Assembly (NCBI GenBank): GCA_038064595.1
Contig: JBBTSV010000009.1
Coordinates: forward strand, 8,769-72,768
DNA: 64,000 nt
Reading direction: 5' to 3'
DNA from: Patescibacteria group bacterium
Lineage (GTDB): Bacteria; Patescibacteriota; Minisyncoccia; Phycocordibacterales; Phycocordibacteraceae
Position 1 is the stretch's first letter, and every line of letters starts with the position of its first letter. The position numbers and the translations under genes are program-made. Positions 314 to 58,004 of the stretch are shown here, piece after piece. The notes under the pieces were generated by a model. The model saw nothing but the letters and a program-made list of their open reading frames with translations, did not search any database and was not told the origin of the DNA.

Positions 314-1180
314 ATGATGCGCAACGCCAAATCGCTCAAAATCCTCTGTATCGCCGGGCCGACCGCTTCGGGTAAGTCTCCGCGCGCGGTCGAGGAGGCG
401 CTTCTGCGCGAGGGCGAGATTATCTCGGTCGATTCACGCCAAGTCTACCGCGGGCTCGACATCGGGACCGAGAAGATCACTACCGAGGAGATGCGAGACG
501 TGCCGCACCACCTGATCGACATTCGTGAGGTACACGAGCCCTACTCTGCCGGCGACTTCGTCGCTGATGCGACGCGCCTAATTGAGGAAATCTCGGCGCG
601 CGGCAAGCTGCCGATCTTGGTAGGCGGAACGCACTTTTACTTTGACGCACTCCTCTTAGGGCTCCCTGCGGTAGAGGGTGATCCGATGCTGCGCGCAGAA
701 CTTGAAAAGCTCTCGACCGAGGAGCTTTTTGCGCGCGTCCGCTCCGCGGACGCGCGCAGAGCGAGCGAACTCGACCCCAAAAATCGTCGGCGCCTCATTC
801 GTGCGCTCGAAATAATCGCCTCCCTCGGCAGCGTCCCGTCCCGCGCTGTACCTACGCCCCCTTTTGGAACAAGGTTTAACCTTGTTGAATGGATCGTGAT
901 TGACCCCTCGAGAGAGGAGTTGCGGCCGCGCATTGACGCCCGGCTTGAGGCCGCGCTTGCGCGCGGCCTCGTCGACGAAGTGCGTCGTGTGCGCGAGCAG
1001 GTCGGCGACGCGCGCCTCAACGAGCTCGGGCTTGAGTATAAAATCGTAGGTGAATATCTGCGTAATGAGCGCAGTGAGGAGTCGCTCCTCCCCGCTCTCT
1101 CGAGCAAGCTCTGGCAGTATGCGCGTCGCCAGAAAGCCTGGCTGCGCAAACTCCAACTTGGGGGTCCGACCCCCAAGTAA
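314..1180 (+). CDS. miaA: tRNA dimethylallyltransferase
   Basis: ILCIAGPTASGKS P-loop, DSRQVYRGLDIGTEKIT, HHLIDI, GGTHFY: the canonical MiaA motif order. Start is taken at the internal MM just before the P-loop. The C-terminal LGGPTPK plus stop codon is encoded by the P1 palindrome. Confidence 0.85.
   Translation: MMRNAKSLKILCIAGPTASGKSPRAVEEALLREGEIISVDSRQVYRGLDIGTEKITTEEMRDVPHHLIDIREVHEPYSAGDFVADATRLIEEISARGKLPILVGGTHFYFDALLLGLPAVEGDPMLRAELEKLSTEELFARVRSADARRASELDPKNRRRLIRALEIIASLGSVPSRAVPTPPFGTRFNLVEWIVIDPSREELRPRIDARLEAALARGLVDEVRRVREQVGDARLNELGLEYKIVGEYLRNERSEESLLPALSSKLWQYARRQKAWLRKLQLGGPTPK
1157..1177. repeat. P1 palindromic element copy a (CTTGGGGGTCCGACCCCCAAG) forming the miaA 3' end and stop
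   Basis: Perfect 21-nt palindrome, identical to copies at 2350, 45442 and 57947. Confidence 0.9.
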
Positions 1181-1215
1181 ACGAATCGCCCCTCGCGGAG
1201 CAATCCGCGAGGGGG

Positions 1216-1485
1216 CTAGACCCTCTTGTCGATCTGAATCAGCAAGTCGTCGATCTGCTTTTTCATCACCTCAAAACGCTGTTTGGTGTCGGCCTGCGCC
1301 GCAAACTCCTGTTCGAGGGGCTCCAGGATGGTCTGCAGTATGCAGACGAGCTCTCGGAGCTTTTCTGTTCGCCTTCCTCTCATGGGTTGGTTGACCCATA
1401 CCAGGTTCTGAACATCGAGCTCCGCGACCGCGAAATTAACCGCGACCAGAGACTCGATGTGGATTAGGCAGTCCTTTGTCATCAT
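1216..1485 (-). CDS. Hypothetical small protein (89 aa)
   Basis: ORF starting MMTKDCLIHIESLVAV..., with an AAAGGAG Shine-Dalgarno sequence 5 nt upstream of the ATG on the minus strand (plus-strand ctccttt at 1491-1497). No recognisable family. Confidence 0.45.
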   Translation of the reverse strand: MMTKDCLIHIESLVAVNFAVAELDVQNLVWVNQPMRGRRTEKLRELVCILQTILEPLEQEFAAQADTKQRFEVMKKQIDDLLIQIDKRV

Positions 1486-1537
1486 GGTGCTCCTTTCGAG
1501 CATTGTTGGATCCGCTGTTTGTATAGCACAGGAGAAG

Positions 1538-1572
1538 TATAAAAACAAAAGGCCCGTCACAATCGACGGGCC
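1538..1572 (-). terminator. Intrinsic terminator (GGCCCGTC-acaatc-GACGGGCC followed by a T-tract on the minus strand)
   Basis: Perfect 8-bp GC-rich stem with a 6-nt loop, followed on the minus strand by TTTTGTTTTTAT. Confidence 0.75.
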
Positions 1573-1831
1573 TGGGCGGGGACGAGAACGATTGGTTTTG
1601 GGGACTACTTCCCCGGGGCTCCTCTGGCTGCCCATCGTTCTCGCCCCCGACTTACATTGCATCCACGCCAGAGGTGGATGGCTGCACGCCTCACTCGGCG
1701 TCCCGCGTCTACACAGCTCAAGAGCGGGTCGAGGCCTCACACAGACCTCGGAAGGGCTTGTTGGCTTATTACTCCTATCTCCACACCGGGAGAGACAGAG
1801 GAGCGGCTAAGCTCTGAAGGCAAACAAGCTA
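1546..1831 (-). ncRNA. Candidate structured ncRNA or riboswitch-like leader (about 290 nt), identity unknown
   Basis: Bounded by a TTGACA-16-TATACT promoter and a perfect intrinsic terminator on the minus strand. No credible ORF. Internal long-range complementarity (GGGGACGAGAACGAT at 1577-1591 with ATCGTTCTCGCCCCC at 1636-1650) and a nested hairpin GGGGA-ctact-TCCCC. No match recognised by eye to the tmRNA, RNase P, SRP or 6S consensus. Confidence 0.35.
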
Positions 1832-1836
1832 GTTCA

Positions 1837-1864
1837 AGTATACACTCCCCCACCCTTTTGTCAA
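1837..1864 (-). promoter_or_regulatory. Sigma-70-like promoter, TTGACA-16 nt-TATACT, minus strand
   Basis: Plus-strand tgtcaa at about 1859-1864 and agtata at about 1837-1842 give a perfect -35 and a 5/6 -10 on the minus strand. Confidence 0.55.
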
Positions 1865-1976
1865 CCCCCGTAAGTGGTTCTCCCCATCTGGCCCGCAAAA
1901 CGCAGTGCGCTGCTGCTGGTATGATATATCATACCTTTTTTCCCTGATCGACTTAGAGACCTACGATGTCCGTAGG
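1859..1976 (-). repeat. Promoter-containing repeated module, copy A (about 118 bp; includes the GGTATGATATATCATACC palindrome and a TACGATGTCCGTA motif)
   Basis: Near-identical to 44621-44737 from the -35 TTGAC through gcgttttgcg-gtgcgctgctgctggtatgatatatcatacctttt-ccctgatcgacttag-gac-tacgatgtcc. Confidence 0.8.
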
Positions 1977-2038
1977 TGGGAGTTATAAACACACAAGCCC
2001 ACACGGGGTGGGCTTGTTTTCGGCGCGAGAAGGGGCGA

Positions 2039-2263
2039 TCAATCGGCTGCTGCCTCTCCCACACGCTTGGCAAGCATGGCCAGATATTTCTGGTTGCCCG
2101 TGCCGCGGTTGTGGTCGAAGAAGATGCCGCATGCAGTGCAGCACTCGACCATCCCGATCTCGTACTGCCCACTGCCGCAGTTGGGGCACGGCGGCTTCGC
2201 CGTATCGAGCGGCGCGACGAGGGCCGCCAAGGCTGGCGGCACATTTGAAAACGGTGGTGGCAT
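2039..2263 (-). CDS. Putative zinc-ribbon small protein (74 aa)
   Basis: MPPPFSNV...CPNCGSGQYEIGMVECCTACGIFFD gives a CxxC-18-CxxC arrangement. AAGAAAGG Shine-Dalgarno sequence 8 nt upstream of the ATG on the minus strand. Confidence 0.4.
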   Translation of the reverse strand: MPPPFSNVPPALAALVAPLDTAKPPCPNCGSGQYEIGMVECCTACGIFFDHNRGTGNQKYLAMLAKRVGEAAAD

Positions 2264-2345
2264 GAAAGGACCTTTCTTGTTGTCAGGAGACATTCCCGAC
2301 CCAGACTCAAAGCTACCCTCCCTCCCCCACCCCGTCAAGAATTCC

Positions 2346-2374
2346 CCAACTTGGGGGTCCGACCCCCAAGTTGG
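2346..2374. repeat. P1 palindromic element copy b (extended 29-nt palindrome CCAACTTGGGGGTCCGACCCCCAAGTTGG), intergenic
   Basis: Perfect palindrome, immediately followed by GGGACTTACGATGTCCGTA, which supplies the stop codon of the next gene. Confidence 0.9.
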
Positions 2375-2377
2375 GAC

Positions 2378-2806
2378 TTACGATGTCCGTAGATTGCCGT
2401 TGCGGGATTTGAGGTACTTCCAGCCGATGAGGAGGAAAGAGACGACAGTCAGAACCTGCGCGGCGAGCCGCGCCGCGTCGTCTCGGTAGAATGGATAGAG
2501 ATCCATGAACCCGCCAGACGTGACGGGATTTGAGGCGATGAAAATAATCGAGAGTGGCACCGCCCACACTGCCAGCTTGAGCCAGGAGTTAAAAATGGGT
2601 CGGGAAATCAGGACCAAAATAATCGTGAGAGGTAGGAGGTAGAGAGAAAAATTATAGAATGGGTTTGTAAAGTACTGGTAGATATGGCTGACCCAATTGC
2701 TATAACATACTCCGTATGAATACATACACCAATAACTAAAGTGGGCAAATCCGACGCCAACCAGTGCGATGACGAGTGGCACACTCTGCATGAGTTTGTT
2801 TTTCAT
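2378..2806 (-). CDS. Hypothetical polytopic membrane protein (142 aa)
   Basis: Several hydrophobic helices, no recognisable family. The stop codon lies within the ACGATGTCCGTA motif. Confidence 0.5.
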   Translation of the reverse strand: MKNKLMQSVPLVIALVGVGFAHFSYWCMYSYGVCYSNWVSHIYQYFTNPFYNFSLYLLPLTIILVLISRPIFNSWLKLAVWAVPLSIIFIASNPVTSGGFMDLYPFYRDDAARLAAQVLTVVSFLLIGWKYLKSRNGNLRTS

Positions 2807-2812
2807 TTTTGG

Positions 2813-6169: not shown

Positions 6170-6208
6170 AGGAAAGGGGGTATGCCACTATGGTATCATC
6201 TCCACATC

Positions 6209-7879
6209 ATGGGTACATCAGTGGAAGATCTGAAAGAATCGTTGCAGGGGGTGATGAGGGGGGAGGTGAAGGATGACGAGGCGAGCCGTAGAGCGGCGAG
6301 CCGAGATACCTCGCTCTTTGAGCGGATGCCGTCGCTCGTGGTCTGCCCTGCTGATGCGGAGGACGTGAGCGCGGTGGTGAAGGAGGTGCGGCGCGCCCGC
6401 GAAGCGGGCGCGGAGATCTCTCTCACTGCTCGTGCCGGAGGTACCGACATGTCGGGCGGCCCACTGACTACCAGTGTGGTCCTCTCACTCACCCAACACC
6501 TGAATCACATTGCCGAGGTTGGCAACGACTACGCGATAACTGAACCGGGAGTGTATTATCGCGACTTCGAGAAAGCGACCCTCGAGAAGGGTCTCATCCT
6601 CCCCTCCTACCCCGCGAGCCGCGAGATCGCTGCAATGGGCGGTATCGTCGCCAACAACTCCGCCGGCGAGCGTACGCTTGAGTATGGACAAACCGAGCGG
6701 TATATCGAGGAGATGGATGTCGTCCTCTCTGACGGCTCGACGGCCCACTTTGGCCCCCTCACCCCTACCGAGCTCGAAGAGAAAAAGGGCCTCCAGAATC
6801 TTGAGGGGGAGATCTACCGCACTATGGACACTCTCCTTGCCGAGAACGCTGCCTTAATAGAGGAGAAACGCCCCAAGGTGTCCAAGAATGCGGCCGGTTA
6901 TGGCCTCTGGCGCGTCAAGGATCCTGCCACCGGCACTTTCAACCTCGCCCAACTTATCTGCGGCTCGCAGGGCACCCTCGCGCTCTGGACGAAGGCAAAG
7001 CTCTCGCTCGTAAAGCCTAAGGAGCATCGCGCGATGCTCGTCATCTTTCTCCATGAGATGGGGCTCCTCCCTGAAATCGTACAGCGCGTCCTCCCACACA
7101 ACCCGGAGTCATTTGAGTCCTACGACGACCACACCTTCACGCTCGCGGTGAAGTTTCTCCCCCAGGTGCTCTCTCAAATGGGCTTTATCAAGGCAGCCAA
7201 GCTCGGGATAGATTTTCTCCCTGAAGCGGCGATGGTCGCCACCGGCGGGGTGCCGAAGATGATCCTCATGGCCGAGTTCTCCGATGACACGATCGAGGCG
7301 GCTGACGCGCGCGCCGAGGCGGCGCGCGTCGCTCTCGTCGACCTCAACCTCCAGATGAAAATCGAAAAGGATGAGAAGGAGTCGGAGAAGTATTGGATCG
7401 TTCGTCGCGAGAGCTTCAACCTGCTCCGTAAAAATGTCCACGGGCTCCACACAGCACCCTTCATCGACGACTTTGTCGTCCCACCCACAAGCTACTCTGA
7501 ATTTTTGCCAAAATTGAATGCGCTTCTCGCTGAGTACTCCTCTCACTTCATCTACACCGTCGCGGGACACGTGGGTAACGGCAACTTCCATATCATCCCG
7601 CTCATGGATCTCACCAAAGAAGAGAATCGCCAGGTGATCCTCGATCTCGCGCCGCGCGTCTACGAGCTGGTGATTAAAGAAGGCGGCACCACCACCGGCG
7701 AGCACAACGACGGCATTATCCGCACCCCGTATCTCCCGATGCTCTTTGGCGAAGAGATGGTCGCGCTCTTTGAAAAGACGAAGAAAGTCTTTGACCCGCT
7801 CAACATTTTTAATCCTGGGAAAAAGGTCGGGGGCGTCTTCGAAGATATAAAAAGAGACATGCTGAAATCAGTGACTTGA
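6209..7879 (+). CDS. FAD-linked oxidase (GlcD / D-lactate dehydrogenase family)
   Basis: FAD-binding PCMH-like N-terminal domain (VVCPADAEDVSAVVKEVRRAREAGAEISLTARAGGTDMSGGP) and a C-terminal FAD-oxidase_C-like region. Start taken at the internal MGTSVEDL; the ORF extends to 6182. Confidence 0.7.
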   Translation: MGTSVEDLKESLQGVMRGEVKDDEASRRAASRDTSLFERMPSLVVCPADAEDVSAVVKEVRRAREAGAEISLTARAGGTDMSGGPLTTSVVLSLTQHLNHIAEVGNDYAITEPGVYYRDFEKATLEKGLILPSYPASREIAAMGGIVANNSAGERTLEYGQTERYIEEMDVVLSDGSTAHFGPLTPTELEEKKGLQNLEGEIYRTMDTLLAENAALIEEKRPKVSKNAAGYGLWRVKDPATGTFNLAQLICGSQGTLALWTKAKLSLVKPKEHRAMLVIFLHEMGLLPEIVQRVLPHNPESFESYDDHTFTLAVKFLPQVLSQMGFIKAAKLGIDFLPEAAMVATGGVPKMILMAEFSDDTIEAADARAEAARVALVDLNLQMKIEKDEKESEKYWIVRRESFNLLRKNVHGLHTAPFIDDFVVPPTSYSEFLPKLNALLAEYSSHFIYTVAGHVGNGNFHIIPLMDLTKEENRQVILDLAPRVYELVIKEGGTTTGEHNDGIIRTPYLPMLFGEEMVALFEKTKKVFDPLNIFNPGKKVGGVFEDIKRDMLKSVT

Positions 7880-10914: not shown

Positions 10915-12732
10915 TCACTGCAAAACGGCTTTGATGCGCCGCACCCCCGCTGACGACGCTTCTTCTTTCACGATTTTAAACTGCGCACCACCCTCACCAA
11001 GCTCGCGCGTGTTGGAGACGTGTGGTCCACCACAAAACTCTATCGAAAATGCGCTCTCAAGGGGTCCCACCGAATACACCGAGACGGTCTCGGGGTAGGT
11101 GGCGCCAAACTCGTGTTCCGCCCCGAGCTTCTCTGCCTCCTCCTTCTTCATGTCGGTGCGCACCACCGGAATAGCCTCCATTATCTTCTCGTTCACGATT
11201 TCTTCTACCTTCTTGATTTGTTCGGAAGTCATTTTCGATCCGTACGAGAAATCGATACGCAGGCGCTCACTGGTGATATTGCTCCCCCTCTGGTGCACCT
11301 CGGGGCCGAGCACCATCTGGAGCGCCTTCAGGAGGAGGTGGTGCGCCGTGTGGTAGCGCACCGTCTCTACCGCGTGGTCAGCGAGCCCGCCGGCAAACTT
11401 CTGCGCGGCACCCGCCCGCGAGAGCGCCTGGTGCTCCGCCATCTTCTGCTTCACGTCTTCAAAGTCTATCCCCGCGCCGCGCTCCGCAGCGATCTCGGCC
11501 GTGAGCTCGACTGGAAAGCCGTAGGTGGTGAAGAGCATAAAGGCATCAATGTTTTCTCCCATCTTCTCAAGTTCGCGCATACCATTTGAGAGCGTCTTTC
11601 TGAATTGCTGTTCCTCTTTCTCAAGCTCCTCTTTGATAGTCTGCGCGGCCGCGTGCACAAACGGATACTGCGCAACGTACGCGGCGCCAAAGCCTTCGGC
11701 AACCTCGGCCAAGACGGCATCTTTGATCCCGAGCTTGTCGGCCTCGCGTATCGAGCGACGAATCAGGCGTCTAAGCACATAGCCCTGTTCGGCATTACTC
11801 GGCCGGATCCCCGACGCGATCATGAAGGTCGCTGCGCGCACGTGATCAAGGACGATCCTAAACGACCTTGTATCTGCGCCACCATTTTCGACAAGGTTTA
11901 ACCTTGTTTCGTAGGACTTTCCTGATCGCTGTTCTAGCACAGTGCGTGCTTGGTCGAATACGTCGGTGAGAAAGACGTCTGGGTTGTTGCGTGTCGCGGC
12001 CGTCATGCGCTCGAGCCCGCCGCCAAAGTCGACATTCTGCTTCGGCAATTTAGCGAATCCATCTGCCGTCTTGATGTATTCCATAAAGACCGAGTTGCCG
12101 ATCTCCATGAAGCGCCCACAGTCGCAGTTGGGGTGACACGCTTCGCCAAAGGCGCTGTCGTGTGGCGTCTGGAAGTCAAAAAAGAGTTCAGAATCGGGAC
12201 CGCCCGGCTCGCCCACAGGCATTTTGTCGGGAGTGCCGGAGCGGCTCCACCAATTCTTCTTGGCATCGTAGAAGAGAATGTGGTCGTCGGGCATGCCGAT
12301 CTGCTTCCAGATCTCAGCGGCCTCGGTATCCTTGGGTAGGCCGAGCGCTTCGTCGCCTAGGAAGCAGGTGACCCAGAGTCGCTCCTTGGGCAGCCCGAGC
12401 TCACTAGTGACAAACTCATAGACCCACGGGAGCTGCTCTTTTTTAAAATAATCACCGAGGCTCCAATTGCCGAGCATCTCAAAAAAGGTTGTGTGGCGAT
12501 TATCGCCCACCTCCTCGATGTCGCCGGCGCGGAACGAGAGCTGCGAGTCGACCAGCCGCGTGCCTAGGGCGTGCGGCTGGCCGAGGAGGTATGGCACCAA
12601 GGGCTGCATCCCCGAGCTCGTGAAGAGCGTGGTCGGGTCATTCTCGGGCACGATGGGCGCCGACGGTATCACCGCGTGCCCCCTTGCAGCAAAAAACGCT
12701 AAATATTTCTCCCGCACTTCGTTCACGGTCAT
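10915..12732 (-). CDS. alaS: Alanine--tRNA ligase, short form (605 aa, no C-Ala domain)
   Basis: MTVNEVREKYLAFFAARGHAVIPSAPIVPENDPTTLFTSSGMQPLVPYLLG AlaRS N-terminal signature, plus an editing domain with a Cys/His cluster near the end. Confidence 0.9.
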   Translation of the reverse strand: MTVNEVREKYLAFFAARGHAVIPSAPIVPENDPTTLFTSSGMQPLVPYLLGQPHALGTRLVDSQLSFRAGDIEEVGDNRHTTFFEMLGNWSLGDYFKKEQLPWVYEFVTSELGLPKERLWVTCFLGDEALGLPKDTEAAEIWKQIGMPDDHILFYDAKKNWWSRSGTPDKMPVGEPGGPDSELFFDFQTPHDSAFGEACHPNCDCGRFMEIGNSVFMEYIKTADGFAKLPKQNVDFGGGLERMTAATRNNPDVFLTDVFDQARTVLEQRSGKSYETRLNLVENGGADTRSFRIVLDHVRAATFMIASGIRPSNAEQGYVLRRLIRRSIREADKLGIKDAVLAEVAEGFGAAYVAQYPFVHAAAQTIKEELEKEEQQFRKTLSNGMRELEKMGENIDAFMLFTTYGFPVELTAEIAAERGAGIDFEDVKQKMAEHQALSRAGAAQKFAGGLADHAVETVRYHTAHHLLLKALQMVLGPEVHQRGSNITSERLRIDFSYGSKMTSEQIKKVEEIVNEKIMEAIPVVRTDMKKEEAEKLGAEHEFGATYPETVSVYSVGPLESAFSIEFCGGPHVSNTRELGEGGAQFKIVKEEASSAGVRRIKAVLQ

Positions 12733-12809
12733 ATGTAGAGAGAGTACCGCACTCATATAAAAAGCAGAAGCCCCATTGCTGGAGCTTCGCGGTCGTGCCG
12801 AACGGTTGG

Positions 12810-13343
12810 TCAGTGGCGCCGGACGAAGTTGGGGACCAGAAGAAGGTTGGCCGTCCCAAATTCGTTTTCGAACGCATGAAAGACATGCGTCCTGACTCCG
12901 TCGTCCCACCAATACTGCACACAGAAGAGAGCGACCGGTCTTTTCGGATCGCCCGTCGGGGTGAAGCAGTGGAGCGAGAAACTCCCGCTCAGATCTCGGA
13001 TCACCTGCGCTGGCCCCGTCTCCTCGAGGTGCGCCAAGACGGCTTCGACCTGCGACAAGGTCAGCGTGTGCCCCAACGCAATCAGCAGGGTGCCGAGTGC
13101 ACGCTCGGTGAGCCTATCACCCCGACCGAGTCCAAGAAGTGCAGCGGCGGCGTTGCGATCATTCCACTTCTCGCCGTCGTCCCAGGCAAACACCGTGACC
13201 AGCGTCAGCGGCGTCGCTGGCTGCATGATTGGTAACCACCGGTCGATGTCGGCGTCCCTACTAGCGACCTGATCAAAGCAGGTGAGCGTAGTCTTCTCCG
13301 CGGTGGGGCTCACGGGGATGTGACCCGCGATCCTAAGATCCAT
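12810..13343 (-). CDS. Hypothetical protein (177 aa)
   Basis: ORF only; no recognisable motifs. Confidence 0.35.
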   Translation of the reverse strand: MDLRIAGHIPVSPTAEKTTLTCFDQVASRDADIDRWLPIMQPATPLTLVTVFAWDDGEKWNDRNAAAALLGLGRGDRLTERALGTLLIALGHTLTLSQVEAVLAHLEETGPAQVIRDLSGSFSLHCFTPTGDPKRPVALFCVQYWWDDGVRTHVFHAFENEFGTANLLLVPNFVRRH

Positions 13344-16829: not shown

Positions 16830-17522
16830 CTACGAGATCCAGTCAATCGGGGTCTCGCCGTGAGCCTCCAGATAACCGTTCACTTTTTTAAAATGGCCAT
16901 TGCCGAAGAAACCCGATGCGGCCGAGAAGGGTGAGGGGTGCGCGGATTCAAGCACCAGGTGTTTAGTGCGGTCAATATGCGCGCCCTTGGCGCGAGCATA
17001 GTTGCCCCACAGCATGAAGACGAGGCGCGTGCGCTCCTCGGAAAGCGTGCGGATAACTGCATCGGTAAACTGCTCCCATCCTTGATTCTGATGCGAGCCA
17101 GCCGTGTGTGCCCGCACGGTGAGAGTTGCATTGAGAAGTAAGACCCCCTGCCTCGCCCACCGCGTGAGATCTCCTCCGCGATTGATGGACACTACGTGTC
17201 CATCAATCGCGCCGTATTCATCTGCAATTTCTTTGAAAATGTTTTGAAGTGAGGGCGGGGTCGCGACCCCCTCATCGACCGCGAAGCAGAGACCGTTGGC
17301 CTGATGCGCCCCATGGTAGGGGTCTTGGCCGAGAATAACGACCTTCACCTGCTCAAAGGGGCAAAGATCAAACGCTCTGAAGATATTCTTGGGCGCGGGA
17401 TACACCACTCCCTCCTGGTATTCTTTTTTTACAAAACTGGTCAGCACTGTGAAATATTCTTTTTCAAATTCACCAGAGAGCTTCTCCTTCCACGTTTTCT
17501 CAATCTTCACCTCCATAAACAT
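16830..17522 (-). CDS. ung: Uracil-DNA glycosylase (family 1)
   Basis: VVILGQDPYHGAHQANGLCFAV (GQDPY water-activating loop) and HPSPFSA near the C-terminus. The start codon overlaps the upstream gene's stop as TAATG, inside a REP. Confidence 0.9.
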   Translation of the reverse strand: MFMEVKIEKTWKEKLSGEFEKEYFTVLTSFVKKEYQEGVVYPAPKNIFRAFDLCPFEQVKVVILGQDPYHGAHQANGLCFAVDEGVATPPSLQNIFKEIADEYGAIDGHVVSINRGGDLTRWARQGVLLLNATLTVRAHTAGSHQNQGWEQFTDAVIRTLSEERTRLVFMLWGNYARAKGAHIDRTKHLVLESAHPSPFSAASGFFGNGHFKKVNGYLEAHGETPIDWIS

Positions 17523-17547
17523 TAGGACACTGGGTGTCCTAACTTTT
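17520..17547. repeat. REP palindrome copy R1 (TTAGGACAC-TGG-GTGTCCTAA)
   Basis: Same palindrome flanks the RAYT gene at 48662, 49338 and 49391. Here it encodes the last eight residues and the stop codon of the MGMT-like gene. Confidence 0.85.
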
Positions 17548-24995: not shown

Positions 24996-26405
24996 TTAAA
25001 TAGGGAGATCGGTTGGTGCGTCGCCGGTTGCCGAATGGACGCGATTAAGCCCCGGCGTCTCCACCGAGCGCGAGGGGATATGAAAAATGGTCGCAAGCTC
25101 TTCGGTACTCATCACCATAAGTTCATGCATTTTGAGCCCACCCTCAAAAAAGGGGTCGTAAAAGAATTGCCGGCGACGGTACGCCTCAACAAGCTCGTGC
25201 CGGAATTCATTCTTACGCTTCTCGACGCCGATTTCCCACGGATAATCGTCAAATTTTTTCATCCAGTTGGTCGAATTGATACCGTTCCACCCCTCGGTCG
25301 AGAAAGGCTTGAAGAGTGCGATCATATGCGCAATGGTAGGACCGTAGAAATTCTCGGGGCGGGCGAGATAGATGCAGCGCGCACCGACATCAAAACCCAG
25401 TTTGGAGACATTCCGGTCAATAGCAGCCATCTTCTCAAGTTGTCCCTTTGTCGGGTTCGGGAATCCAGGGCGTTCCTCTCCTGTCACAATGTCGATATAG
25501 GTATCACGAGTCGTTTCTCGAATTTTCATTATGAGCTCCTTGGCCTGATCCTTCCAGGTGTAGACCTTTCCTTCGGTATTGAGCTTCCCGTATTTCTCGC
25601 CCTTGTGGGCGCGAATAACAAACTGGAGCCAGAGATACTCCCCTTTTCCGACTGACGCCATAAACTCGATGAGGTTAGCGAGCGGGTCCGTCTGTTCCGG
25701 CTCTTTCTGAACCTTATCGAGCCCATACTCAACGTACGTTTTAATAGGAAGCGCGTCGTTGTCGGCGGTGTGTTTAAAATCACAGCCCCAGATGCTCCAT
25801 TCATGAGACGGTGCATTCAGCATGCGGGTGTAGTCGGGTGCCTCGATGATCTGCATCCCGGGGTACTGTGCGTAGAGCTGGCTCTCGACGAGGCGTCGAA
25901 GCTCTGCGCGTCCCCAGATAAAGAAATGTACTTCACCTTCAAATGAGGCTATCTCGAGTGAGAAGTAGGGGCGGATGCCTCCCTGGAAGCGCTGCCACCA
26001 CGTCGACTCCCCGCCCGTGAGGTGAAGGGTCGAGAGAAAGGCCTCCATAGCAAGCGGGGTCTTGACTAGGGTGCGCGGCGGCTTGAGCTCAAGAAGGATG
26101 TAGTTCTTCTTGGCAATAAATTCTGAGCGTTTCAAGATATACCACAGATGGTACGCACTCCCGACCAGAAGGATAGGGAGCCACATGGGTGCGAGCCAGA
26201 ACGCTATCGCCAGTGCCTCTGACACCGTCGCAGGCATAAAAACAAATGCCATGAGGAGTACCGAGAGACCGAGGAGCAGAACCGGCCATTTCTCAAAACG
26301 GAGGCCAATCCGGTTATTAAGGTCTTTTTGTATCGCCTCAAGCTGGTGCAGAAATAACATGGATGACTCCAGTATATCAAACAAAGTGCGGTGCCCACCG
26401 GGCAC
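24996..26405 (-). CDS. Hypothetical membrane protein (469 aa; two N-terminal transmembrane helices plus a large soluble domain)
   Basis: ORF with clear hydrophobic helices and good coding periodicity; no recognisable family by eye. Confidence 0.5.
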   Translation of the reverse strand: MPGGHRTLFDILESSMLFLHQLEAIQKDLNNRIGLRFEKWPVLLLGLSVLLMAFVFMPATVSEALAIAFWLAPMWLPILLVGSAYHLWYILKRSEFIAKKNYILLELKPPRTLVKTPLAMEAFLSTLHLTGGESTWWQRFQGGIRPYFSLEIASFEGEVHFFIWGRAELRRLVESQLYAQYPGMQIIEAPDYTRMLNAPSHEWSIWGCDFKHTADNDALPIKTYVEYGLDKVQKEPEQTDPLANLIEFMASVGKGEYLWLQFVIRAHKGEKYGKLNTEGKVYTWKDQAKELIMKIRETTRDTYIDIVTGEERPGFPNPTKGQLEKMAAIDRNVSKLGFDVGARCIYLARPENFYGPTIAHMIALFKPFSTEGWNGINSTNWMKKFDDYPWEIGVEKRKNEFRHELVEAYRRRQFFYDPFFEGGLKMHELMVMSTEELATIFHIPSRSVETPGLNRVHSATGDAPTDLPI

Positions 26406-26432
26406 CGCACTTTGTGTGTCGATATTAGATAT

Positions 26433-28073: not shown

Positions 28074-28084
28074 CTCACGCCCCA

Positions 28085-28130
28085 CAAAACAGTCCCGCCC
28101 GTTCATAAAGAACGGGCGGGACTGTTTTGT
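28085..28130 (+). terminator. Long perfect hairpin terminator after the RRM gene
   Basis: CACAAAACAGTCCCGCCCGTTC-ataaa-GAACGGGCGGGACTGTTTTGTG, a 22-bp perfect stem. Confidence 0.6.
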
Positions 28131-28144
28131 GGTAGCGTCTCTCT

Positions 28145-44595: not shown

Positions 44596-44737
44596 ACTAT
44601 CACCTTTTACTGCACCCCGCGTCAACCTCTGCGCAATGGTTCACACCCCCTTGGCTCGCAAAACGCGGTGCGCTGCTGCTGGTATGATATATCATACCTT
44701 TTCCCTGATCGACTTAGGGACTTACGATGTCCCTATA
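44596..44737 (-). repeat. Promoter-containing repeated module, copy B
   Basis: Shares the -35 TTGAC, gaacca, gcgttttgcg, GGTATGATATATCATACC palindrome and GGGACTTACGATGTCC motif with copy A at 1859-1976. Confidence 0.8.
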
Positions 44738-45025
44738 AAAGCGCACCGCCCCGGGTGGGGCGGCGTGGCGCACAAGGTCGATCACCGTTTAGTCTTCTTA
44801 TTGTTCGGCGTGACCGACTTCTTGGCACGGCTCTTTGCCGCTGCGAAATCACCAACGTAGACGCTGACGAGGCGACGCACGCCCGAATCAGGATGATTCA
44901 TCTTGTCGAACATCCTCGCCTCGTGTGCGAGTGAAGGAACTCCTTTTGCCATGGCGAACTCCTTTGGTTGACACGTCTGGGCCTGCGAACAGGCTTGGGG
45001 ATTAGTTTACCACTCAAAACGCGAA

Positions 45026-45694
45026 TTATTTCTTCTCGCGCCACTTTTCAATCTCGGCGTGGTGGCCGGTTTGGAGGACTTTTGGCACGCGATAATTCTT
45101 CTTTTTGTATGAAATAGTTTCTGGCCGGGTGTAGACGGCACTTGACGCGACGCGACGCTCCTCGACGGAGGCGTCCTTACCGAGAACGCCCGGGAGCCGG
45201 CGCGTCACCGCGTCGACTACCGCGAGCGCCGGTAATTCCCCACCCGTGTAGACCGCCTCGCCCACGGCATACTCCTTCACTGGCGCGAGGGTCTTGAGGA
45301 TTTTCTTGGCGCGCTCATCGATCCCCTCGTAGCGGCCGCATACGAGGATCACGTCGCTATACTTTTTTATAAGCGCGTCAGCGTCTTTATTGGTGAACTG
45401 CTTCGCGCTCGGGCTGAACCACACAATCACCGATTTCTTCAACTTGGGGGTCCGACCCCCAAGTGATTTCTGAACGGCTTTGACTACGGGAAGCGCCATC
45501 ATCACCATCCCGGGGCCCCCGCCGTAGGGCTTTTCATCTACTTTCTTGTAGCTCCCTGCAGGGCCCGCGACGAAGTCGCGGGGGTTCTGATACTTCACCA
45601 CTATCTTCTTCTCCTTACGCGCACGTCCGATAATCGACGCGCCCAAATATGCGTCGCACGCTTCTTCAAAAAGAGTGACGAGATGGAATCTCAC
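45026..45694 (-). CDS. trmD: tRNA (guanine37-N1)-methyltransferase
   Basis: SPOUT-fold TrmD motifs (VILVCGRYEGIDERA, GGELPALAVVDAV). Contains an in-frame 21-nt P1 palindrome encoding LGGRTPK. Confidence 0.85.
   Translation of the reverse strand: MRFHLVTLFEEACDAYLGASIIGRARKEKKIVVKYQNPRDFVAGPAGSYKKVDEKPYGGGPGMVMMALPVVKAVQKSLGGRTPKLKKSVIVWFSPSAKQFTNKDADALIKKYSDVILVCGRYEGIDERAKKILKTLAPVKEYAVGEAVYTGGELPALAVVDAVTRRLPGVLGKDASVEERRVASSAVYTRPETISYKKKNYRVPKVLQTGHHAEIEKWREKK
45442..45462. repeat. P1 palindromic element copy c, in frame inside trmD
   Basis: cttgggggtccgacccccaag. Confidence 0.9.
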
Positions 45695-48581: not shown

Positions 48582-48582
48582 T

Positions 48583-48645: not shown

Positions 48646-48661
48646 GAGCAGTCTCCGCCCA

Positions 48662-48688
48662 AAGTTAGGACACCCAGTGTCCTAACTT
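48662..48688. repeat. REP palindrome R2 (AAGTTAGGACAC-CCA-GTGTCCTAACTT)
   Basis: Perfect palindrome; contains the RAYT stop codon. Confidence 0.9.
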
Positions 48689-49329
48689 TCTATCTCATCC
48701 GCTCTTGATGCGAGGTCTGGATTTGAAATGATTTCCTCTATAGTTTGTTCATATTCGCTTGGCATTCCGAGCACAGGAGAAATCTCATTGGACTCGATAA
48801 TTGAAGGAAAATTATGATTACCAAAATAGTCGAGATGACTACTCCACCGATAATTTTGCAAAGCAGTCAGAGCACCTGATACATCCTGTACCTCTCCTTT
48901 TCTCCATTCGGGATGCGTATAGTCAAGCGGGTTCAAATGAATATAGAACGGGATGTAAAGGAAGTGGGCGTCTCGCTCAATGAGCACTTTACGGTATTTG
49001 CCTTGCCACAAGACACCCGATCGCTCGTATCGCCTATTAAAGTATTTTGTGTACCCCATATTCATCTTGTGCATGAACATTGAAATTCCGTTTTCGACCC
49101 TTTCTGATACCAAGAGATGATAGTGATTTTTCATCAGACAGAAAGCATGAATATCAATGAGCCGCTCGCGTTTACGGTGCTCGTCCTTCCGTTCATTCAA
49201 AATATAATTCGGTACGGGATGTACGTCATTGAGAACGAATAAATCATGGGTAAACCTCACTCTGTCTTGATCGTCCATAACAACGTCTCGTTTATCGACT
49301 CCGCGCCCAATCAGATGCCAAAAGTTCAT
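48682..49329 (-). CDS. REP-associated tyrosine transposase (RAYT; IS200/IS605 TnpA-like HUH-Y1)
   Basis: HUH motif in CLMKNHYHLLV and a downstream catalytic Tyr region (YTKYFNRRY), about 215 aa. Flanked on both sides by the same palindrome, which is the classic REP-RAYT arrangement. Confidence 0.8.
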   Translation of the reverse strand: MNFWHLIGRGVDKRDVVMDDQDRVRFTHDLFVLNDVHPVPNYILNERKDEHRKRERLIDIHAFCLMKNHYHLLVSERVENGISMFMHKMNMGYTKYFNRRYERSGVLWQGKYRKVLIERDAHFLYIPFYIHLNPLDYTHPEWRKGEVQDVSGALTALQNYRWSSHLDYFGNHNFPSIIESNEISPVLGMPSEYEQTIEEIISNPDLASRADEIES

Positions 49330-49337
49330 AGCTCTAT

Positions 49338-49359
49338 GTTAGGACACCCAGTGTCCTAG
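49338..49359. repeat. REP palindrome R3
   Basis: gttaggacacccagtgtcctag, immediately upstream of the RAYT start codon. Confidence 0.85.
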
Positions 49360-49390
49360 TTTTTGTCCTATCCCCTGTTTACCATTTCTG

Positions 49391-49420
49391 AAAGTTAGGA
49401 CACTGGGTGTCCTAACTTTC
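49391..49420. repeat. REP palindrome R4 (inverted relative to R3; forms a REPIN-like doublet with a 31-nt spacer)
   Basis: aaagttaggacactgggtgtcctaactttc. Confidence 0.9.
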
Positions 49421-49422
49421 AG

Positions 49423-49749: not shown

Positions 49750-49750
49750 G

Positions 49751-51967: not shown

Positions 51968-51994
51968 TCACTATTGTAGCAAATGTCTGTGGCA

Positions 51995-52687: not shown

Positions 52688-52719
52688 ATCAAGCTAGTAT
52701 GCCGCAGACAGACGAGAAA

Positions 52720-53646: not shown

Positions 53647-53813
53647 GGAAAGATCTGTACTTGGAGTATATCAGTAAAAAGAGATGCGCAAACGCACAAT
53701 GTGTAAAAGCGCGCACCTTTGTTTATTGAGGGAGCTCCGCAGCGCTGGCGCGAGGCCGAGCAAATTTTCAGCAGAAAATTATGCGTCTCCCGAAAGAGAC
53801 AAAGGTGCGGCGC

Positions 53814-54170: not shown

Positions 54171-54867
54171 ACGCCCTACCCTACCATGCCTGCGTAAAAT
54201 TGGAAAGCGCCGGCCCGTTGTGGTGGGTCGGCGCTGTCTCGGGCGGCGCTTGTGGCGCCTCACCCGTTTGGCGAAGCCTGCTGCTTCGCGGACTTCACGG
54301 CGTAGATGGCCGCGAAGACCGGATGCGGCTCGTGAATCGGCACCGGTGGGCGTTGCGGGAACTGCAGGGGTACCCCCTGTTTCTCGGGGGTAGGAGTTCT
54401 CGACTCCTTCTTTTTCATGTGTTTCTCCTAGGTTTTTTCCTTCTTTGCATCCAACCACCCGGCTGGACACAAGCTGATAGTATAGTCTTATTTGTATATG
54501 AAATCAAGGCTTTCTCGTGACGGGTGTGGAAATCAAAACGCCGCCCGGGTGTGGCGGCGTTTCGTGGGCGGCCCTTGTGGGGCCTAGCGACGAAGATCGC
54601 AGTGGAGTGCCTGCCCCGGGTTCACCGGCGCGTGGCGGATGCTGCAACAGACGGTCTCTCCGTGCGGCGTCGGGTCGATGACCCGAGCACCCACGCACGG
54701 CCGCCCATTGATCACGCACGACCCAAAGTCGTGCAGTTTCAGTAGGTCGACGGTCGCCGATAGCGTGCCGTTGTCGTTCTGCTGCGGAATCAGTAGTTCT
54801 GAACGCATATCCTCACTCCTCAGTGTTCCTGCCATTTTGTGATGGGACCCCATCACAAGCCTCCACA

Positions 54868-55467
54868 CTACCCCTGCCCCTTTGGCAAATCAAGGTGGAT
54901 GAAAGTGCGGCGGTGGATAGCTGATAGGCCGTATTTTTTAAGTGCTTCATAGTGCGCCGCGGTACCATACCCCTTGTGTTGCTCAAGGCCGTAGTGCGGA
55001 TACTCTTTTGCGAGCTCCACCATGAGTCTGTCGCGCGTCACCTTGGCCACTATTGAGGCGAGCGATATGAGCGGCACGAGCTCGTCGCCGTTAATAATCG
55101 TCTCTTGCGCATATTCACTCGGCGCGCGTAGCGCGCCGTCAAGTAGCACGTGCACCAACGCGCTGTCTGGTGCAAGTGCGCTCACGCCGCGCGCGAGCGC
55201 GCGGCGCACTGCAGTCGCTATCCCCTCCTCATCTATCGCTGCGGCACTCTCGATCTCAACACGAAACTGCGCGTCGCCTTTGGCGACGCGTTCTTCAAGC
55301 ATCGTAAAAAGTGCCTCGCGTTTCTTTTCTGAAAGCTTCTTCGAGTCCCGCACGCCCGGGAACTCCTTCGCGACGTCGAAGCCTTCTGGCACCATCACGA
55401 CCCCCACGGCCACCGGCCCTGCCAAGGGGCCCCTCCCCGCCTCATCTGCCCCCAGGAGAAACTGCAT
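54868..55467 (-). CDS. rnhB: Ribonuclease HII
   Basis: GADEAGRGPLAGPV N-terminal motif with the catalytic DE. Confidence 0.85.
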   Translation of the reverse strand: MQFLLGADEAGRGPLAGPVAVGVVMVPEGFDVAKEFPGVRDSKKLSEKKREALFTMLEERVAKGDAQFRVEIESAAAIDEEGIATAVRRALARGVSALAPDSALVHVLLDGALRAPSEYAQETIINGDELVPLISLASIVAKVTRDRLMVELAKEYPHYGLEQHKGYGTAAHYEALKKYGLSAIHRRTFIHLDLPKGQG

Positions 55468-55490
55468 GAGAAAAGTATATACTGGAGCCT

Positions 55491-58004
55491 ATGGCCGCGC
55501 GATTTATTCATCTCCATACTCACAGCCACTACTCCTTCCTCCAGGCGCTGCCAAAAATTGATGAGCTCGTGGAGAAGGCGGTCGCAGAGGGGATGGACGC
55601 CCTCGCACTCACCGACGCTGGCAACATGCACGGCGCGATTGATTTCTACAAGGCCGCCACCAAGGCCGGGATTAAACCGATCCTTGGCGTCGATGCGTAC
55701 CTCGCTCCCCGCTCGCGCCACGATCGCGACCCACAGGTGGACAGCAAACGCTCGCGCATCGTGCTCCTTGCAGAAAATAATACGGGCTACACCAATCTCC
55801 TCGCGCTCGTGACACAATCGTGGACGGAGGGGTTCTATGAGCGCCCGCGCCTCGATAAAGAGCTCTTACGCGCGCATGCCACAGGCGTGATCGCGGTGAT
55901 CCCCTCATTTGCAGGCGATGTCGCCCAACACCTGCGCGCCGGCGACCCTGCCGGCGCGGCCGCTGCCATCGCAGAATATAAAACTATATTTGGTGTGGAG
56001 AATCTCTTTCTTGAGATCACGCACCACCCCAAGGTCGCTGGACACGAGGTACTGATGAAAAAAATAGTCGCGCTCGCGAGAGAAACGAAAACCCCGCTCC
56101 TCGCCCAGCACGATGTCTACTACCTCTCTCCCGACGATCGCGCGGCGACCGAGATCATGCGTCGTATCCAGCACGGCGAGCGCGGGAGAAATGAAGATGA
56201 AGACTTCTCCTTTATTAGTGACGCAACAGCGCGTTCTTTTTTCAAAGACCTCCCCGACGCGATCGAGAACTCTGGAAGAATCGCCGACCGCTGCAGCCTC
56301 TCTTTTGAGCTCGGCAAGTGGACCTTTCCTGCAGTACCCGTCTCACCCGGATTTGCCGACCATAATGAAGAGCTACGCGCCAAAGCATTTGCCGGGATCA
56401 GAGCACGCAGCCTTGAGGAGACGAAGGAGGTCGTCGACCGCATCGAGTACGAGTTGAAAATTATTATCGACAAAGGGTTCGCGGTGTACTACCTGATCGT
56501 CGCCGACCTCCTCGGCTTTGCGCGCCGCTCCGGTATTCTCACTACCACGCGAGGCTCCGCCGCAGGGAGCCTTGTCGCCTATCTCATTGGTGTGACCAAC
56601 GTGAACCCGCTTTTCTATAAACTCCCTTTTGAACGCTTCCTCAACCCCGAGCGCCCCAAGGCGCCAGACATCGACATGGACATAGCCGACAATCGTCGTG
56701 ACGAGATGATCGCCTATACCAAGCAGAAGTACGGCGAGGATCACGTCGCTCAGATCGGCACCTTCGGCACTATGATGGCGCGTGCCGCGGTGCGCGATGT
56801 CTCACGGGCGCTCGGTCACGCGTACGCGACCGGTGACCGGATCGCTAAACTCATCCCGATGGGCTCACAGGGATTCCCGATGACCATTGATCACGCTCTC
56901 GATCTTGAACCAGATTTGAAAGTGCTCTACGACGAAGACGACGACGCGCACGAGATTCTTGACCTCGCGAAACGTATTGAGGGGTGTGTACGTCACGTCG
57001 GCGTCCATGCGGCCGGTGTGGTGGTCGCCCCGACCCCTCTCATTAATTGGACACCCATCCAGCCCGACCCAAAGGGCACCGGCAAGCTCATCACTCAGTA
57101 CGACATGTACTCGATCACCGACGAGTATGGCGGGGTCGGACTGCTCAAATTCGACTTCCTCGGGATTAAGAACTTGGCGATTCTCGCCGACGCTGTCTTG
57201 CGGGTGAAAGAGACTCGCGGGATCGATGTTGATATCGAAAATGTCCCCATCGACGACACCAAGACGTATGAAATGCTGGCGCGCGGCGAGACTGAGGGCA
57301 CGTTTCAGTTAAACGGCTCAGGTATGACGCGCTGGCTTAAAGAGCTTCGCCCTTCGACTATCCACGACATCAACGCCATGGTTGCGCTCTACCGACCCGG
57401 ACCGATGGAAACAATCCCTCAGTATATTGAGCGTAAACATAGCCCAAAACTCATCCGCTTCGTTGACCCACGGATGAAAGACTATCTTGATTTCTCGTAC
57501 GGCTTGCTCGTGTATCAAGATGACGTGCTCCTTACCGCGATCACTCTTGCGGGCTACTCCTGGCTTGAGGCCGACCAGCTCCGCAAAGCGATGGGCAAAA
57601 AAATTCCAAAAGTGATGCGGGCTGAAAAAGAGAAGCTCCTCAAGGGGTTTATAGAATATGGAAAGCTCACTCCTGAAAAAGCTGAGAAACTCTGGTCGCT
57701 CATCGAGCCCTTTGCTGCCTACGGCTTTAACAAGGCACACGCCGCAAGCTATGGTAAGGTCGCCTACCAGACCGCGTATATGAAGGCAAATTACCCTGTC
57801 GAATATCTCTGCGCACTTCTCACTGCCGAGTCGGGCGACACCGAACAGGTCGCTGTTTTTGTCGGGGAAGCGAAGCGTATGGGTATCTCCGTCCTCCCGC
57901 CAGACGTCAACGAGAGCGGGAGCGACTTCACGGTGGTGCAGCGTGACTTGGGGGTCGGACCCCCAAGTTGGGGGAGGCCATCCGTTTCGGTTTGTCTTCT
58001 ATAA
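55491..58004 (+). CDS. dnaE: DNA polymerase III alpha subunit, N-terminal 837 aa (PHP, palm and fingers); frame broken at a P1 palindrome
   Basis: PHP motif FIHLHTHSHYSFLQA; DnaE catalytic-region length. The ORF ends 37 nt after a P1 element and the downstream ORF continues the protein in another frame. Confidence 0.85.
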   Translation: MAARFIHLHTHSHYSFLQALPKIDELVEKAVAEGMDALALTDAGNMHGAIDFYKAATKAGIKPILGVDAYLAPRSRHDRDPQVDSKRSRIVLLAENNTGYTNLLALVTQSWTEGFYERPRLDKELLRAHATGVIAVIPSFAGDVAQHLRAGDPAGAAAAIAEYKTIFGVENLFLEITHHPKVAGHEVLMKKIVALARETKTPLLAQHDVYYLSPDDRAATEIMRRIQHGERGRNEDEDFSFISDATARSFFKDLPDAIENSGRIADRCSLSFELGKWTFPAVPVSPGFADHNEELRAKAFAGIRARSLEETKEVVDRIEYELKIIIDKGFAVYYLIVADLLGFARRSGILTTTRGSAAGSLVAYLIGVTNVNPLFYKLPFERFLNPERPKAPDIDMDIADNRRDEMIAYTKQKYGEDHVAQIGTFGTMMARAAVRDVSRALGHAYATGDRIAKLIPMGSQGFPMTIDHALDLEPDLKVLYDEDDDAHEILDLAKRIEGCVRHVGVHAAGVVVAPTPLINWTPIQPDPKGTGKLITQYDMYSITDEYGGVGLLKFDFLGIKNLAILADAVLRVKETRGIDVDIENVPIDDTKTYEMLARGETEGTFQLNGSGMTRWLKELRPSTIHDINAMVALYRPGPMETIPQYIERKHSPKLIRFVDPRMKDYLDFSYGLLVYQDDVLLTAITLAGYSWLEADQLRKAMGKKIPKVMRAEKEKLLKGFIEYGKLTPEKAEKLWSLIEPFAAYGFNKAHAASYGKVAYQTAYMKANYPVEYLCALLTAESGDTEQVAVFVGEAKRMGISVLPPDVNESGSDFTVVQRDLGVGPPSWGRPSVSVCLL
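57947..57967. repeat. P1 palindromic element copy d inside dnaE (net 20-nt insertion flanked by direct TTGGGGG repeats)
   Basis: gacTTGGGGGtcggacccccaagTTGGGGGaggcc. Confidence 0.9.

Follow-up and report, generated by a model that had tools for sequence, protein, structure and literature searches.

A 64-kb stretch of a groundwater Patescibacteria genome (contig JBBTSV010000009.1, positions 8,769 to 72,768 of the forward strand), hereafter the window, carries one short perfect palindrome at the end of miaA, inside trmD, inside dnaE and once between genes, and at the dnaE copy the reading frame appears to break. What is this palindrome, how does it come to lie in such genes, and is dnaE truly split? 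We conclude that the element, which we call P1, is the hairpin of a repetitive extragenic palindromic (REP) system with its REP-associated tyrosine transposase (RAYT) in Paceibacteria-like Patescibacteria, that its intragenic copies are tolerated, and that the dnaE break is not biological, a reading to which we give a probability of about 0.8.

A perfect palindrome at four sites in the window

Using a scan for perfect hairpins in the window, we defined the constant core of P1 as 23 nt, ACTTGGGGGTC(S)GACCCCCAAGT, where S is a C or G at the centre. Its 21-mer, CTTGGGGGTCSGACCCCCAAG, also written as the search pattern ACTTGGNGGTNNNACCNCCAAGT, was used for exact and mismatch scans. The 21-mer has four exact matches, at 1157-1177, 2350-2370, 45443-45463 (centre C) and 57947-57967 (centre G), which agrees with the four copies of the original prediction, an earlier reading of this DNA from its letters alone; 100 dinucleotide shuffles of the window contain none, and allowing up to 3 mismatches adds no further match in the window. 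The palindrome is perfect, as had been claimed, but the lengths of 21-29 nt given for it do not hold, since the core measures 23 nt and the intergenic copy 31 nt rather than 29.

Copy 1 (1156-1178, plus strand, centre C) forms the 3' end of miaA, the tRNA isopentenyltransferase gene (314-1180, plus strand; Pfam PF01715), which reads ...RKLQ-LGGPTPK-TAA with P1 as its last 7 codons. The heptapeptide is the one predicted, but of the stop codon ascribed to it P1 supplies the first base, its final T opening TAA. Copy 2 (2345-2375, strand not assigned) is the 31-nt perfect palindrome, located between the minus-strand open reading frames (ORFs) 2039-2338 and 2378-2806. Copy 3 (45442-45464, minus strand, centre C) is in frame within trmD (45026-45694, minus strand), which reads ...AVQKS-LGGRTPK-LKK..., and the ORF reading confirms the expected LGGRTPK within the peptide SLGGRTPK. 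Copy 4 (57946-57968, plus strand, centre G) lies within dnaE, as stated, but in the window it is out of frame. Copy 1 is a singlet in an independent assembly too, and copy 2 is the same singlet in three independent assemblies.

None of the six frames of P1 contains a stop codon, and the translated readings are LGG(P/R)TPK, LGV(R/G)PPS and TWGSDPQV. The predicted folding energy of a P1 singlet as DNA is -10.4 kcal/mol, and that of the single-stranded DNA hairpin of copy 2 is -16.5 kcal/mol. Among 20 oriented copies the sole constant of the flanks is an A...T pair bordering the 21-mer, positions farther out being variable; neither a conserved insertion target beyond this pair nor a GTAG or CGTC tetranucleotide tag at the hairpin end was found in these copies. 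A scan of the whole window against Rfam at gathering thresholds returned zero families, so P1 falls outside known RNA families.

The dnaE site is an inverted doublet

In the window, dnaE (55491-58699, plus strand) appears as two ORFs, 55491-58004 and 57968-58699. The first reads P1 as DLGVGPPS and reaches a stop 37 nt later, and the second resumes DnaE in the -1 frame. TTGGGGG flanks a 20-nt segment on both sides, and deleting 20, 23 or 26 nt repairs the frame. Neither the 837-aa N-terminal ORF of DnaE nor the threonyl-tRNA synthetase ORF gave a record in exact look-ups; other assemblies were reached via the adjoining RNase HII protein, which yielded eight contigs from the groundwater site Hainich H41 and other runs. 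One of these, L012 (Logan SRR32696710), aligns with 7387 nt of the window without a mismatch and with one gap, of 25 nt; the bases absent from the window are CAACTTGGGGGTCCGACCCCCAAGT. L012 reads GCGTG-ACTTGGGGGTCGGACCCCCAAGT-CA-ACTTGGGGGTCCGACCCCCAAGT-TGGGGGAGG at this locus, an inverted doublet of 23+2+23 = 48 nt with centres G then C. The doublet is in frame, and dnaE is a single ORF of 1077 aa, ...VVQR DLGVGPPS Q LGGPTPK LGEAIRFGL..., in which the doublet encodes the peptide DLGVGPPSQLGGPTPK.

The second copy is also present in L010 (ENA) and L011 (NCBI GCA_964356635.1), where errors pile up just after it, and contigs L013 and L014 terminate inside the palindrome, L014 continuing into adapter sequence (AGATCGGAAGAGCG). 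The doublet is predicted to fold as one 22-23-bp hairpin with an energy of -30 kcal/mol as DNA and -53 kcal/mol as RNA, and such a structure could plausibly have disturbed sequencing and assembly here. The metagenome-assembled genome (MAG) P6-10 (JANLHF01), whose dnaE is 75 % identical in nucleotides, carries an in-frame P1 doublet there too, the 2 nt of its spacer being different. Judged from these sequences, the window most probably lost 25 nt when the assembly collapsed the doublet, and its frame break is most probably an artefact; the ORFs appear split because the doublet was collapsed. With the copy added by the doublet in other assemblies of the same strain, the true count of P1 in this stretch is five.

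We had first considered that the break was biological, the polymerase being truly split or its frame restored by a programmed -1 shift at the G run or by ribosomes bypassing the hairpin, and rejected this once the doublet had been seen in L012 and P6-10 without a break. The -1 frame of the downstream ORF and the TTGGGGG on both sides of the 20-nt segment are what such an event might leave behind, and short C-terminal DnaE fragments on long contigs are listed in several other public assemblies, though these fragments may include similar artefacts. Against this stand the intact 1077-aa DnaE of a contig that is the same as the window save for 25 nt, the second copy in L010, L011 and L014, the in-frame doublet of P6-10, and contigs that break or turn error-ridden exactly at this hairpin. 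Together they make a biological break scarcely credible.

RAYT genes are bordered by the same hairpins

One contig of P6-10 (L003) holds five P1 copies around and inside a 221-aa ORF at 2233-2898. The product matches the IS200-like transposase family Y1_Tnp (Pfam PF01797) with 28.8 bits against a cutoff of 23; P1 borders the gene at both ends, and two further copies are in frame inside it (QLGGRTPKL and QLGGPTPKL). RAYT homologues directly flanked by P1 also occur in three unrelated metagenome contigs: P1 is on both sides in L037 and L048, as in L003, and in L018 the downstream hairpin is P1 and the upstream one a variant. The motifs NHFH (HUH) and YVNLN (catalytic-Tyr helix) are invariant in the alignment. 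JGI labels several of the homologues 'REP element-mobilizing transposase RayT', and in NCBIfam the best and sole match is NF047646 (REP_Tyr_transpos). When an AlphaFold model of the RAYT was compared with the PDB using Foldseek, the top 27 matches were all TnpA proteins of the IS200/IS605 family, IS608 and ISDra2 included, together with the E. coli RAYT 4ER8.

The P1-type RAYT of the window strain (P0345; L059 3001-3666) is encoded on the same 139.5-kb contig, outside the window, and adjoins the gap gene as in P6-10, whose RAYT it matches with 71 % identity. The gene is single-copy and syntenic next to gap in these two genomes, which suggests that the RAYT is vertically inherited. The two flanking and two internal hairpins of P0345 are a compensated variant, P1', ACTTGGAGGTGARACCTCCAAGT (GGAGGT..ACCTCC), that is, ACTTGGAGGTGA(A/G)ACCTCCAAGT. 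A fifth P1' copy is intergenic, 1.7 kb from P0345, and none was found in the 64-kb window. The window genome holds two subfamilies, of which the one adjacent to the enzyme (P1') differs from the P1 of the window; its P1 copies may be relics or may be served by relaxed specificity.

The window itself encodes a RAYT paralogue (Y1/HUH transposase-like; 48682-49329, minus strand) that is 38 % identical to the P1-type RAYT, has no internal hairpins and is not the P1 enzyme; a phmmer search of this paralogue against PDB sequences gave only chance matches to RNA polymerase beta'. It is flanked by a second REP family, TTAGGACACnnnGTGTCCTAA, which spans 48661-49422 with hairpins at 48661-48689, 49340-49358 and 49388-49422 and has a fourth copy at 17522-17542. 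The paralogue's final two codons and TAG stop lie in the hairpin at 48661-48689. A copy of this second family also lies just downstream of trmD in the relative L063 (10718-10760). In L020, the RAYT paralogue is bordered by yet another palindrome, TGTGGGGATAGCATCCCCACA.

Coding copies at variable loops and termini

We compared the proteins that carry P1 with their homologues. In DnaE, the P1 site is the loop between the finger domain and the helix-hairpin-helix (HhH) domain. The closest orthologues, ~75 % identical in the region, read FTVVGEEKDA-IRFGL without an insert, other lineages have unrelated inserts in that loop, and the Pol III alpha subunit of Thermus aquaticus has a gap opposite QRDLGVGPPSQLGGPTPKL, between DFKVV and GEEILFGL. 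Homology between MiaA and solved structures reaches as far as ...WLRK, 2 residues short of P1, and the C-terminal tail of ~35-40 residues found in those structures is absent. The P1 segment of TrmD faces a poorly conserved loop in solved TrmD structures. Among 119 TrmD homologues of 76-87 % identity, P1 is encoded in 5, L-G-G-x-T-x-K variants in 31 and a VGRxTSY palindrome in 16, and the remaining 67 have another sequence or the shortest insert-free loop, ALKGKKGKKVIVWF; by these alignments, the loop at the P1 site is hypervariable.

A filled and an empty state of one site were also observed. The FAD-linked oxidase gene of P6-10 contains a 33-nt insert with P1 (LGVRPPSEIDG), and the window orthologue (6182-7879) is uninterrupted at the corresponding site (6512-6541, plus strand), where EVGND is followed directly by YAITEP. 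The insert-free DnaE orthologues, the gap in the Thermus protein, the hypervariable TrmD loop, the end of MiaA homology and the filled/empty site support, at the level of sequence comparison, the original prediction in its view that the coding P1 copies are insertions, here into variable loops or termini, and not ancestral protein. The clean 21- or 20-nt indels that it foresaw against orthologues are not seen: the apparent insert is 48 nt in dnaE, 33 nt in the P6-10 oxidase gene and about +3 aa in TrmD, with no single unit.

miaA carries a second, different palindrome, (A)ACAAGGTTTAACCTTGT(T), in frame at 868-886 (TRFNLV), which also occurs in frame at 11891-11907 (TRLNLV) in the alanyl-tRNA synthetase gene (10915-12912). 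The miaA copy of ACAAGGTTTAACCTTGT overlaps a segment alignable to solved MiaA structures and may not be an insertion.

Distribution of P1 outside the window

An exact scan for CTTGGGGGTCSGACCCCCAAG in one genome per species matched three Patescibacteria MAGs and one Amycolatopsis sequence (L009); the latter lacks the A...T flanks and was rejected as a P1 copy, being taken as a chance or unrelated terminator-like palindrome. The exact 23-mer is present in 41 further metagenome contigs, which come from groundwater, marine sediment, soil and lakes and have G+C contents of 32-58 %, and also in an organism whose RNase HII is just 49 % identical to that of the window. Unique P1 sites in public contigs number ~60, and the whole of P6-10 contains 11 exact copies. 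P1 copies occupy all three reading frames in unrelated genes, as well as intergenic sites. Inverted doublets were found in dnaE (window strain and P6-10), in def (P6-10) and in L027, the contigs that carry them outside the window strain being L005, L006 and L027; their spacers measure 2-6 nt, and singlets are at least as frequent as doublets.

Some exact P1 pairs, 673-731 nt apart, enclose small cassettes (L029 4627-5322, the same as L053 287-982; and L020 6536-7289). One of the bracketed cassettes encodes MNT (NTP_transf_2) with HepT, a toxin-antitoxin pair, and the other a GIY-YIG nuclease beside an adjoining ORF. P1 pairs may mark or mobilise small cargo.

Hairpins are conserved or replaced at fixed sites

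A stretch of 27 nt at the trmD site is the same in the window and P6-10, in a gene that is 80 % identical and whose neighbouring synonymous sites differ. Both P1 arms in dnaE are likewise the same in the two genomes, where the gene is 75 % identical and the 2-nt spacer differs. If sites changed independently at the rates given by those identities, the probability of no change would be ~0.006 for the 23 nt of trmD and ~2e-6 for the 46 nt of dnaE. Tolerance of insertions accounts for the sites of surviving copies but not for so high an identity, for which a further cause must be added, be it selection for recognition by the enzyme, homogenisation between copies or horizontal spread of the system.

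Other relatives show changed hairpins, and the compensated ones among them indicate that the hairpin is kept up in the DNA. The trmD site of L061 has a fully compensated palindrome, ACTTGGCGGTTCAACCGCCAAGT, that of L063 a decayed P1 copy, and L002 contains two compensated P1 variants. In the trmD of the relative L068, a different perfect 23-nt palindrome, TGTAGGACGTCGGACGTCCTACA (1512-1534; CVGRRTSYI), occupies exactly the nucleotides of P1. It differs from P1 at four compensated stem positions and has the centre GTCGGAC in common with it.

Hairpins embedded in the RAYT ORF

In the P1-type RAYT clade (proteins P0241-P0510), all of the 120 closest homologues (70-83 % identical) carry L-G-G-x-T-x-K at two fixed positions, one before the strand of the HUH motif and the other after the catalytic-Tyr helix. 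The four stem-encoding residues match between the two positions in 85/114, compared with a mean of 33 and a maximum of 49 under shuffled pairing (2000 trials). Among representatives of clusters at 50 % identity, 12/116 have an identical peptide of at least 5 residues at both positions, for which shuffled pairing gives a mean of 0.1 and a maximum of 2; the twelve shared peptides are all different (LRSEASQL, LGYQVSKL, KFQHSVLE, LGNPVSK and others). In L018, the imperfect CTTAGCGGCGAAACCCCTAAG is common to both internal copies and one of the non-coding flanks, indicating that the concerted change acts on DNA and not on protein. Distant members of the RAYT family (canonical YIHLNP...WSS) and the paralogue of the window are without embedded inserts, and a non-exhaustive literature search found no description of this embedded-hairpin architecture. 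We tentatively suggest, as a possibility that we do not favour strongly, a self-referential system: the two REPs within each RAYT ORF co-vary with each other and with its flanks, and REPs in host genes stay perfect or are swapped, which might reflect RAYT-catalysed conversion of hairpin for hairpin, or autoregulation by way of the embedded copies, instead of insertion followed simply by decay.

Proposed mechanism and alternative explanations

By analogy with E. coli TnpA-REP and IS608 TnpA, the RAYT is predicted to bind and cut the P1 hairpin in single-stranded DNA, and its action would spread P1 copies singly or as inverted doublets resembling REPINs (paired REPs that can form one hairpin). 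A copy landing in a gene would persist where a loop or terminus is tolerant and the net length preserves the frame, and survival at such sites would be possible because P1 has no stop codon in any frame. The copies at the miaA end, the trmD loop and the dnaE loop would then be translated as short Gly/Pro/Thr-rich peptides that need no function of their own.

Several observations weigh against this reading. The palindrome has zero substitutions at orthologous sites whose flanks differ by 20-25 %, for which neutral tolerance is insufficient. The RAYT of the window strain is bordered by P1' and not by P1, and the window contains no P1'. The RAYTs fall under the NCBIfam NF047646 cutoff (26.1 and 41.1 bits versus 80), and the AlphaFold model used in the fold search is of low confidence (pLDDT, the predicted local distance difference test score, 52). 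P1 is without the GTAG/CGTC tag by which published REP superfamilies are marked, its copy number is low (11 exact copies in all of P6-10), and it is not mainly extragenic as a REP should be, although intragenic REPs are on record (PMC3733652): long ORFs contain three of the window's four copies and about half of the ~60 unique copies, the latter an approximate proportion from a crude ORF classification that mislabels some high-GC sites, window copies 1 and 2 for example. A 23-nt unit alone cannot yield in-frame singlets. Finally, RAYT action on P1 is a prediction, and even in E. coli only binding and cleavage in vitro are known (PMC3733652).

The identity of the repeat is also an argument for taking P1 as a functional motif selected by the host, such as a protein-binding site, a DNA-uptake signal or a structural signal in RNA or DNA, with the RAYT link secondary. 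The same 23-mer lies at ~60 sites in groundwater, marine-sediment and soil contigs whose G+C ranges over 32-58 %, is unchanged in organisms with RNase HII 49 % identical, and has zero substitutions in 23 nt (trmD) and 46 nt (dnaE) while the surrounding genes are 80 % and 75 % identical. Such a motif would, however, hardly be expected in all three frames of unrelated genes as well as between genes, at sites that are polymorphic between close relatives, or in copies that decay, as in L063. Its sole systematic genomic association is with RAYT genes, each paralogue with its own palindrome, and its density is ~1 per 13-16 kb, whereas known uptake sequences are far denser. We therefore regard a host motif as improbable.

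The original prediction likened P1 to Rickettsia palindromic elements (RPEs), and the likeness in in-frame insertion stands: P1 is read in frame in trmD, in dnaE and at the end of miaA, and in numerous ORFs of relatives. An orphan RPE-type family that spreads in frame into ORFs with no dedicated enzyme is nevertheless very unlikely, since a dedicated RAYT gene borders on P1 in each of four independent contigs and on P1' in the window strain, placing P1 in a REP/RAYT system. Classical RPEs, moreover, are ~100-150 bp long and encode 30-50 aa, compared with the 23 nt of P1. RPE-4 and RPE-6 are counted among CGTC-type REPs and have no known transposase (PMC3733652), a precedent for the orphan state, but P1 is without the CGTC tag. 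The palindromes might instead form, or change, where they stand when replication involves template switching or hairpin-directed repair, and accumulate in tolerant loops without transposition, as the L068 palindrome TGTAGGACGTCGGACGTCCTACA on exactly the trmD nucleotides of P1, with its four compensated stem positions, and the compensated L061 variant at the same site would allow. One bioRxiv preprint reportedly discusses a template-switch origin of hairpins. This leaves unexplained the same 23-mer at ~60 unrelated sites, the doublets, the RAYT flanks and the filled/empty polymorphism with unrelated extra bases, and we consider it most doubtful as a replacement for transposition, on top of which rewriting in place could nonetheless act. 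A REP/RAYT system with tolerated intragenic copies is thus the reading that we retain.

Comparison with known systems

P1 resembles the REP/RAYT systems typified by E. coli TnpA-REP (4ER8) in being a short, GC-rich, dispersed hairpin associated with a single IS200-like Y1/HUH gene that is bordered by the same hairpins. Here too, every RAYT paralogue is paired with a REP of its own, the NHFH and YVNLN motifs occur, and the fold search recovers IS608 and ISDra2 TnpA and 4ER8. Unlike in those systems, the P1 stem is perfect, with 10-11 bp and a 1-3-nt loop, about half of the copies are intragenic, the copy number is low, the P1 RAYT clade scores under the NCBIfam cutoff and carries two hairpins of its own in the ORF, and the hosts are Patescibacteria rather than Proteobacteria. 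As in REPINs, the inverted doublets of dnaE, def and L027 can fold into one long hairpin, and the RAYT is single-copy and syntenic; the spacers of P1 doublets are only 2-6 nt, however, the doublets lie within essential genes and would be translated, and singlets are at least as common. Shared with IS200/IS605 elements (IS608, ISDra2) are the enzyme fold and subterminal hairpins that flank the gene and, for P1 by prediction, are recognised in single-stranded DNA, but here the RAYT gene is not multi-copy, the hairpins alone are dispersed, and there is no tnpB and there are no distinct left and right ends.

P1 shares with classical RPEs (RPE-1 type) a palindromic nature and in-frame positions in genes that stay functional (trmD, the miaA end, and dnaE with its doublet intact). 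It differs in its RAYT linkage and in its 23 nt, the distinction being drawn on element size. To our knowledge, classical RPEs have no linked transposase and are confined to Rickettsia.

RAYTs are known to be single-copy, vertically inherited and flanked by REP doublets (PMC3116915, PMC5581495). Intragenic REPs have been described in several phyla, more than half of them as dimers or groups encoding 20-30 aa, often in replication and repair genes, the dnaE of Rickettsia conorii included; REP ends supply stop codons, and the inserts are thought to occupy tolerant loops (Di Nocera 2013, PMC3733652). P1 is like these REPs in its presence in ORFs, its dimers, its dnaE site and a stop supplied by the repeat end, and it is unlike the CGTC REPs and the Rickettsia RPE-4 and RPE-6 in sequence family, tag and phylum, and in having a cognate RAYT, which those do not (PMC3733652). 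The original prediction knew of no such case in CPR-like genomes, and in the literature searched we found no paper linking RAYT or REP with Patescibacteria; in-frame REPs in ORFs as such had been published for other phyla, with dnaE among the genes. New here are the lineage, the lack of a GTAG/CGTC tag, a 23-mer that stays identical in very divergent genomes, and a clade of RAYTs with two co-varying embedded hairpins. The tiny perfect stem, the high intragenic share and the low copy number also differ from known cases.

Other repeats and features of the window

A third palindrome family, with the core TGATGGACACnnnGTGTCCATCA, is present at 17177-17211 and at 59974-59996, the latter copy being intergenic. 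The 35-nt palindrome at 17177 is in frame within the uracil-DNA glycosylase gene (16830-17522; Pfam UDG) and encodes ...AIDGHVVSINRG.... A repeat of ~90 nt, GCAAAACGCRGTGCGCTGCTGCTGGTATGATATATCATACCTTTT..CCCTGATCGACTTAGRGACYTACGATGTCCGTAG, lies at 1888-1976 and 44651-44740, with a partial copy at 2375-2392; it contains a palindromic TATGATATATCATA box, has no Rfam match, and could be promoter-like or a small RNA. A 1298-aa ORF with long internal repeats, probably a repetitive surface protein, occupies 60001-63897 and carries the hairpin CGCTCGGTGAGACCGAGCG at 61782, 62268, 62766 and 63252, spaced by ~486-498 nt. Single-copy, terminator-like perfect palindromes are found between genes at 28082-28132 (51 nt) and 26381-26415 (35 nt). 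A tRNA scan of the 64-kb window gave no tRNA gene, and the structured-looking GC-rich stretch at ~1560-1860 had no Rfam match at the gathering threshold.

Implications

These results extend REP/RAYT biology to the Patescibacteria (candidate phyla radiation, CPR). P1 hairpins are largely intragenic, in essential genes among others, because the tiny, gene-dense genomes of these bacteria leave little intergenic space. The dnaE site is a warning for annotation, as a collapsed inverted REP doublet made an intact gene look pseudogenised or split. The co-varying hairpins embedded in the RAYT ORF, together with the perfect conservation or clean replacement of hairpins at host sites, make the action of RAYTs on REPs testable, with P1 substrates that are defined and very small and of which many natural variants exist.

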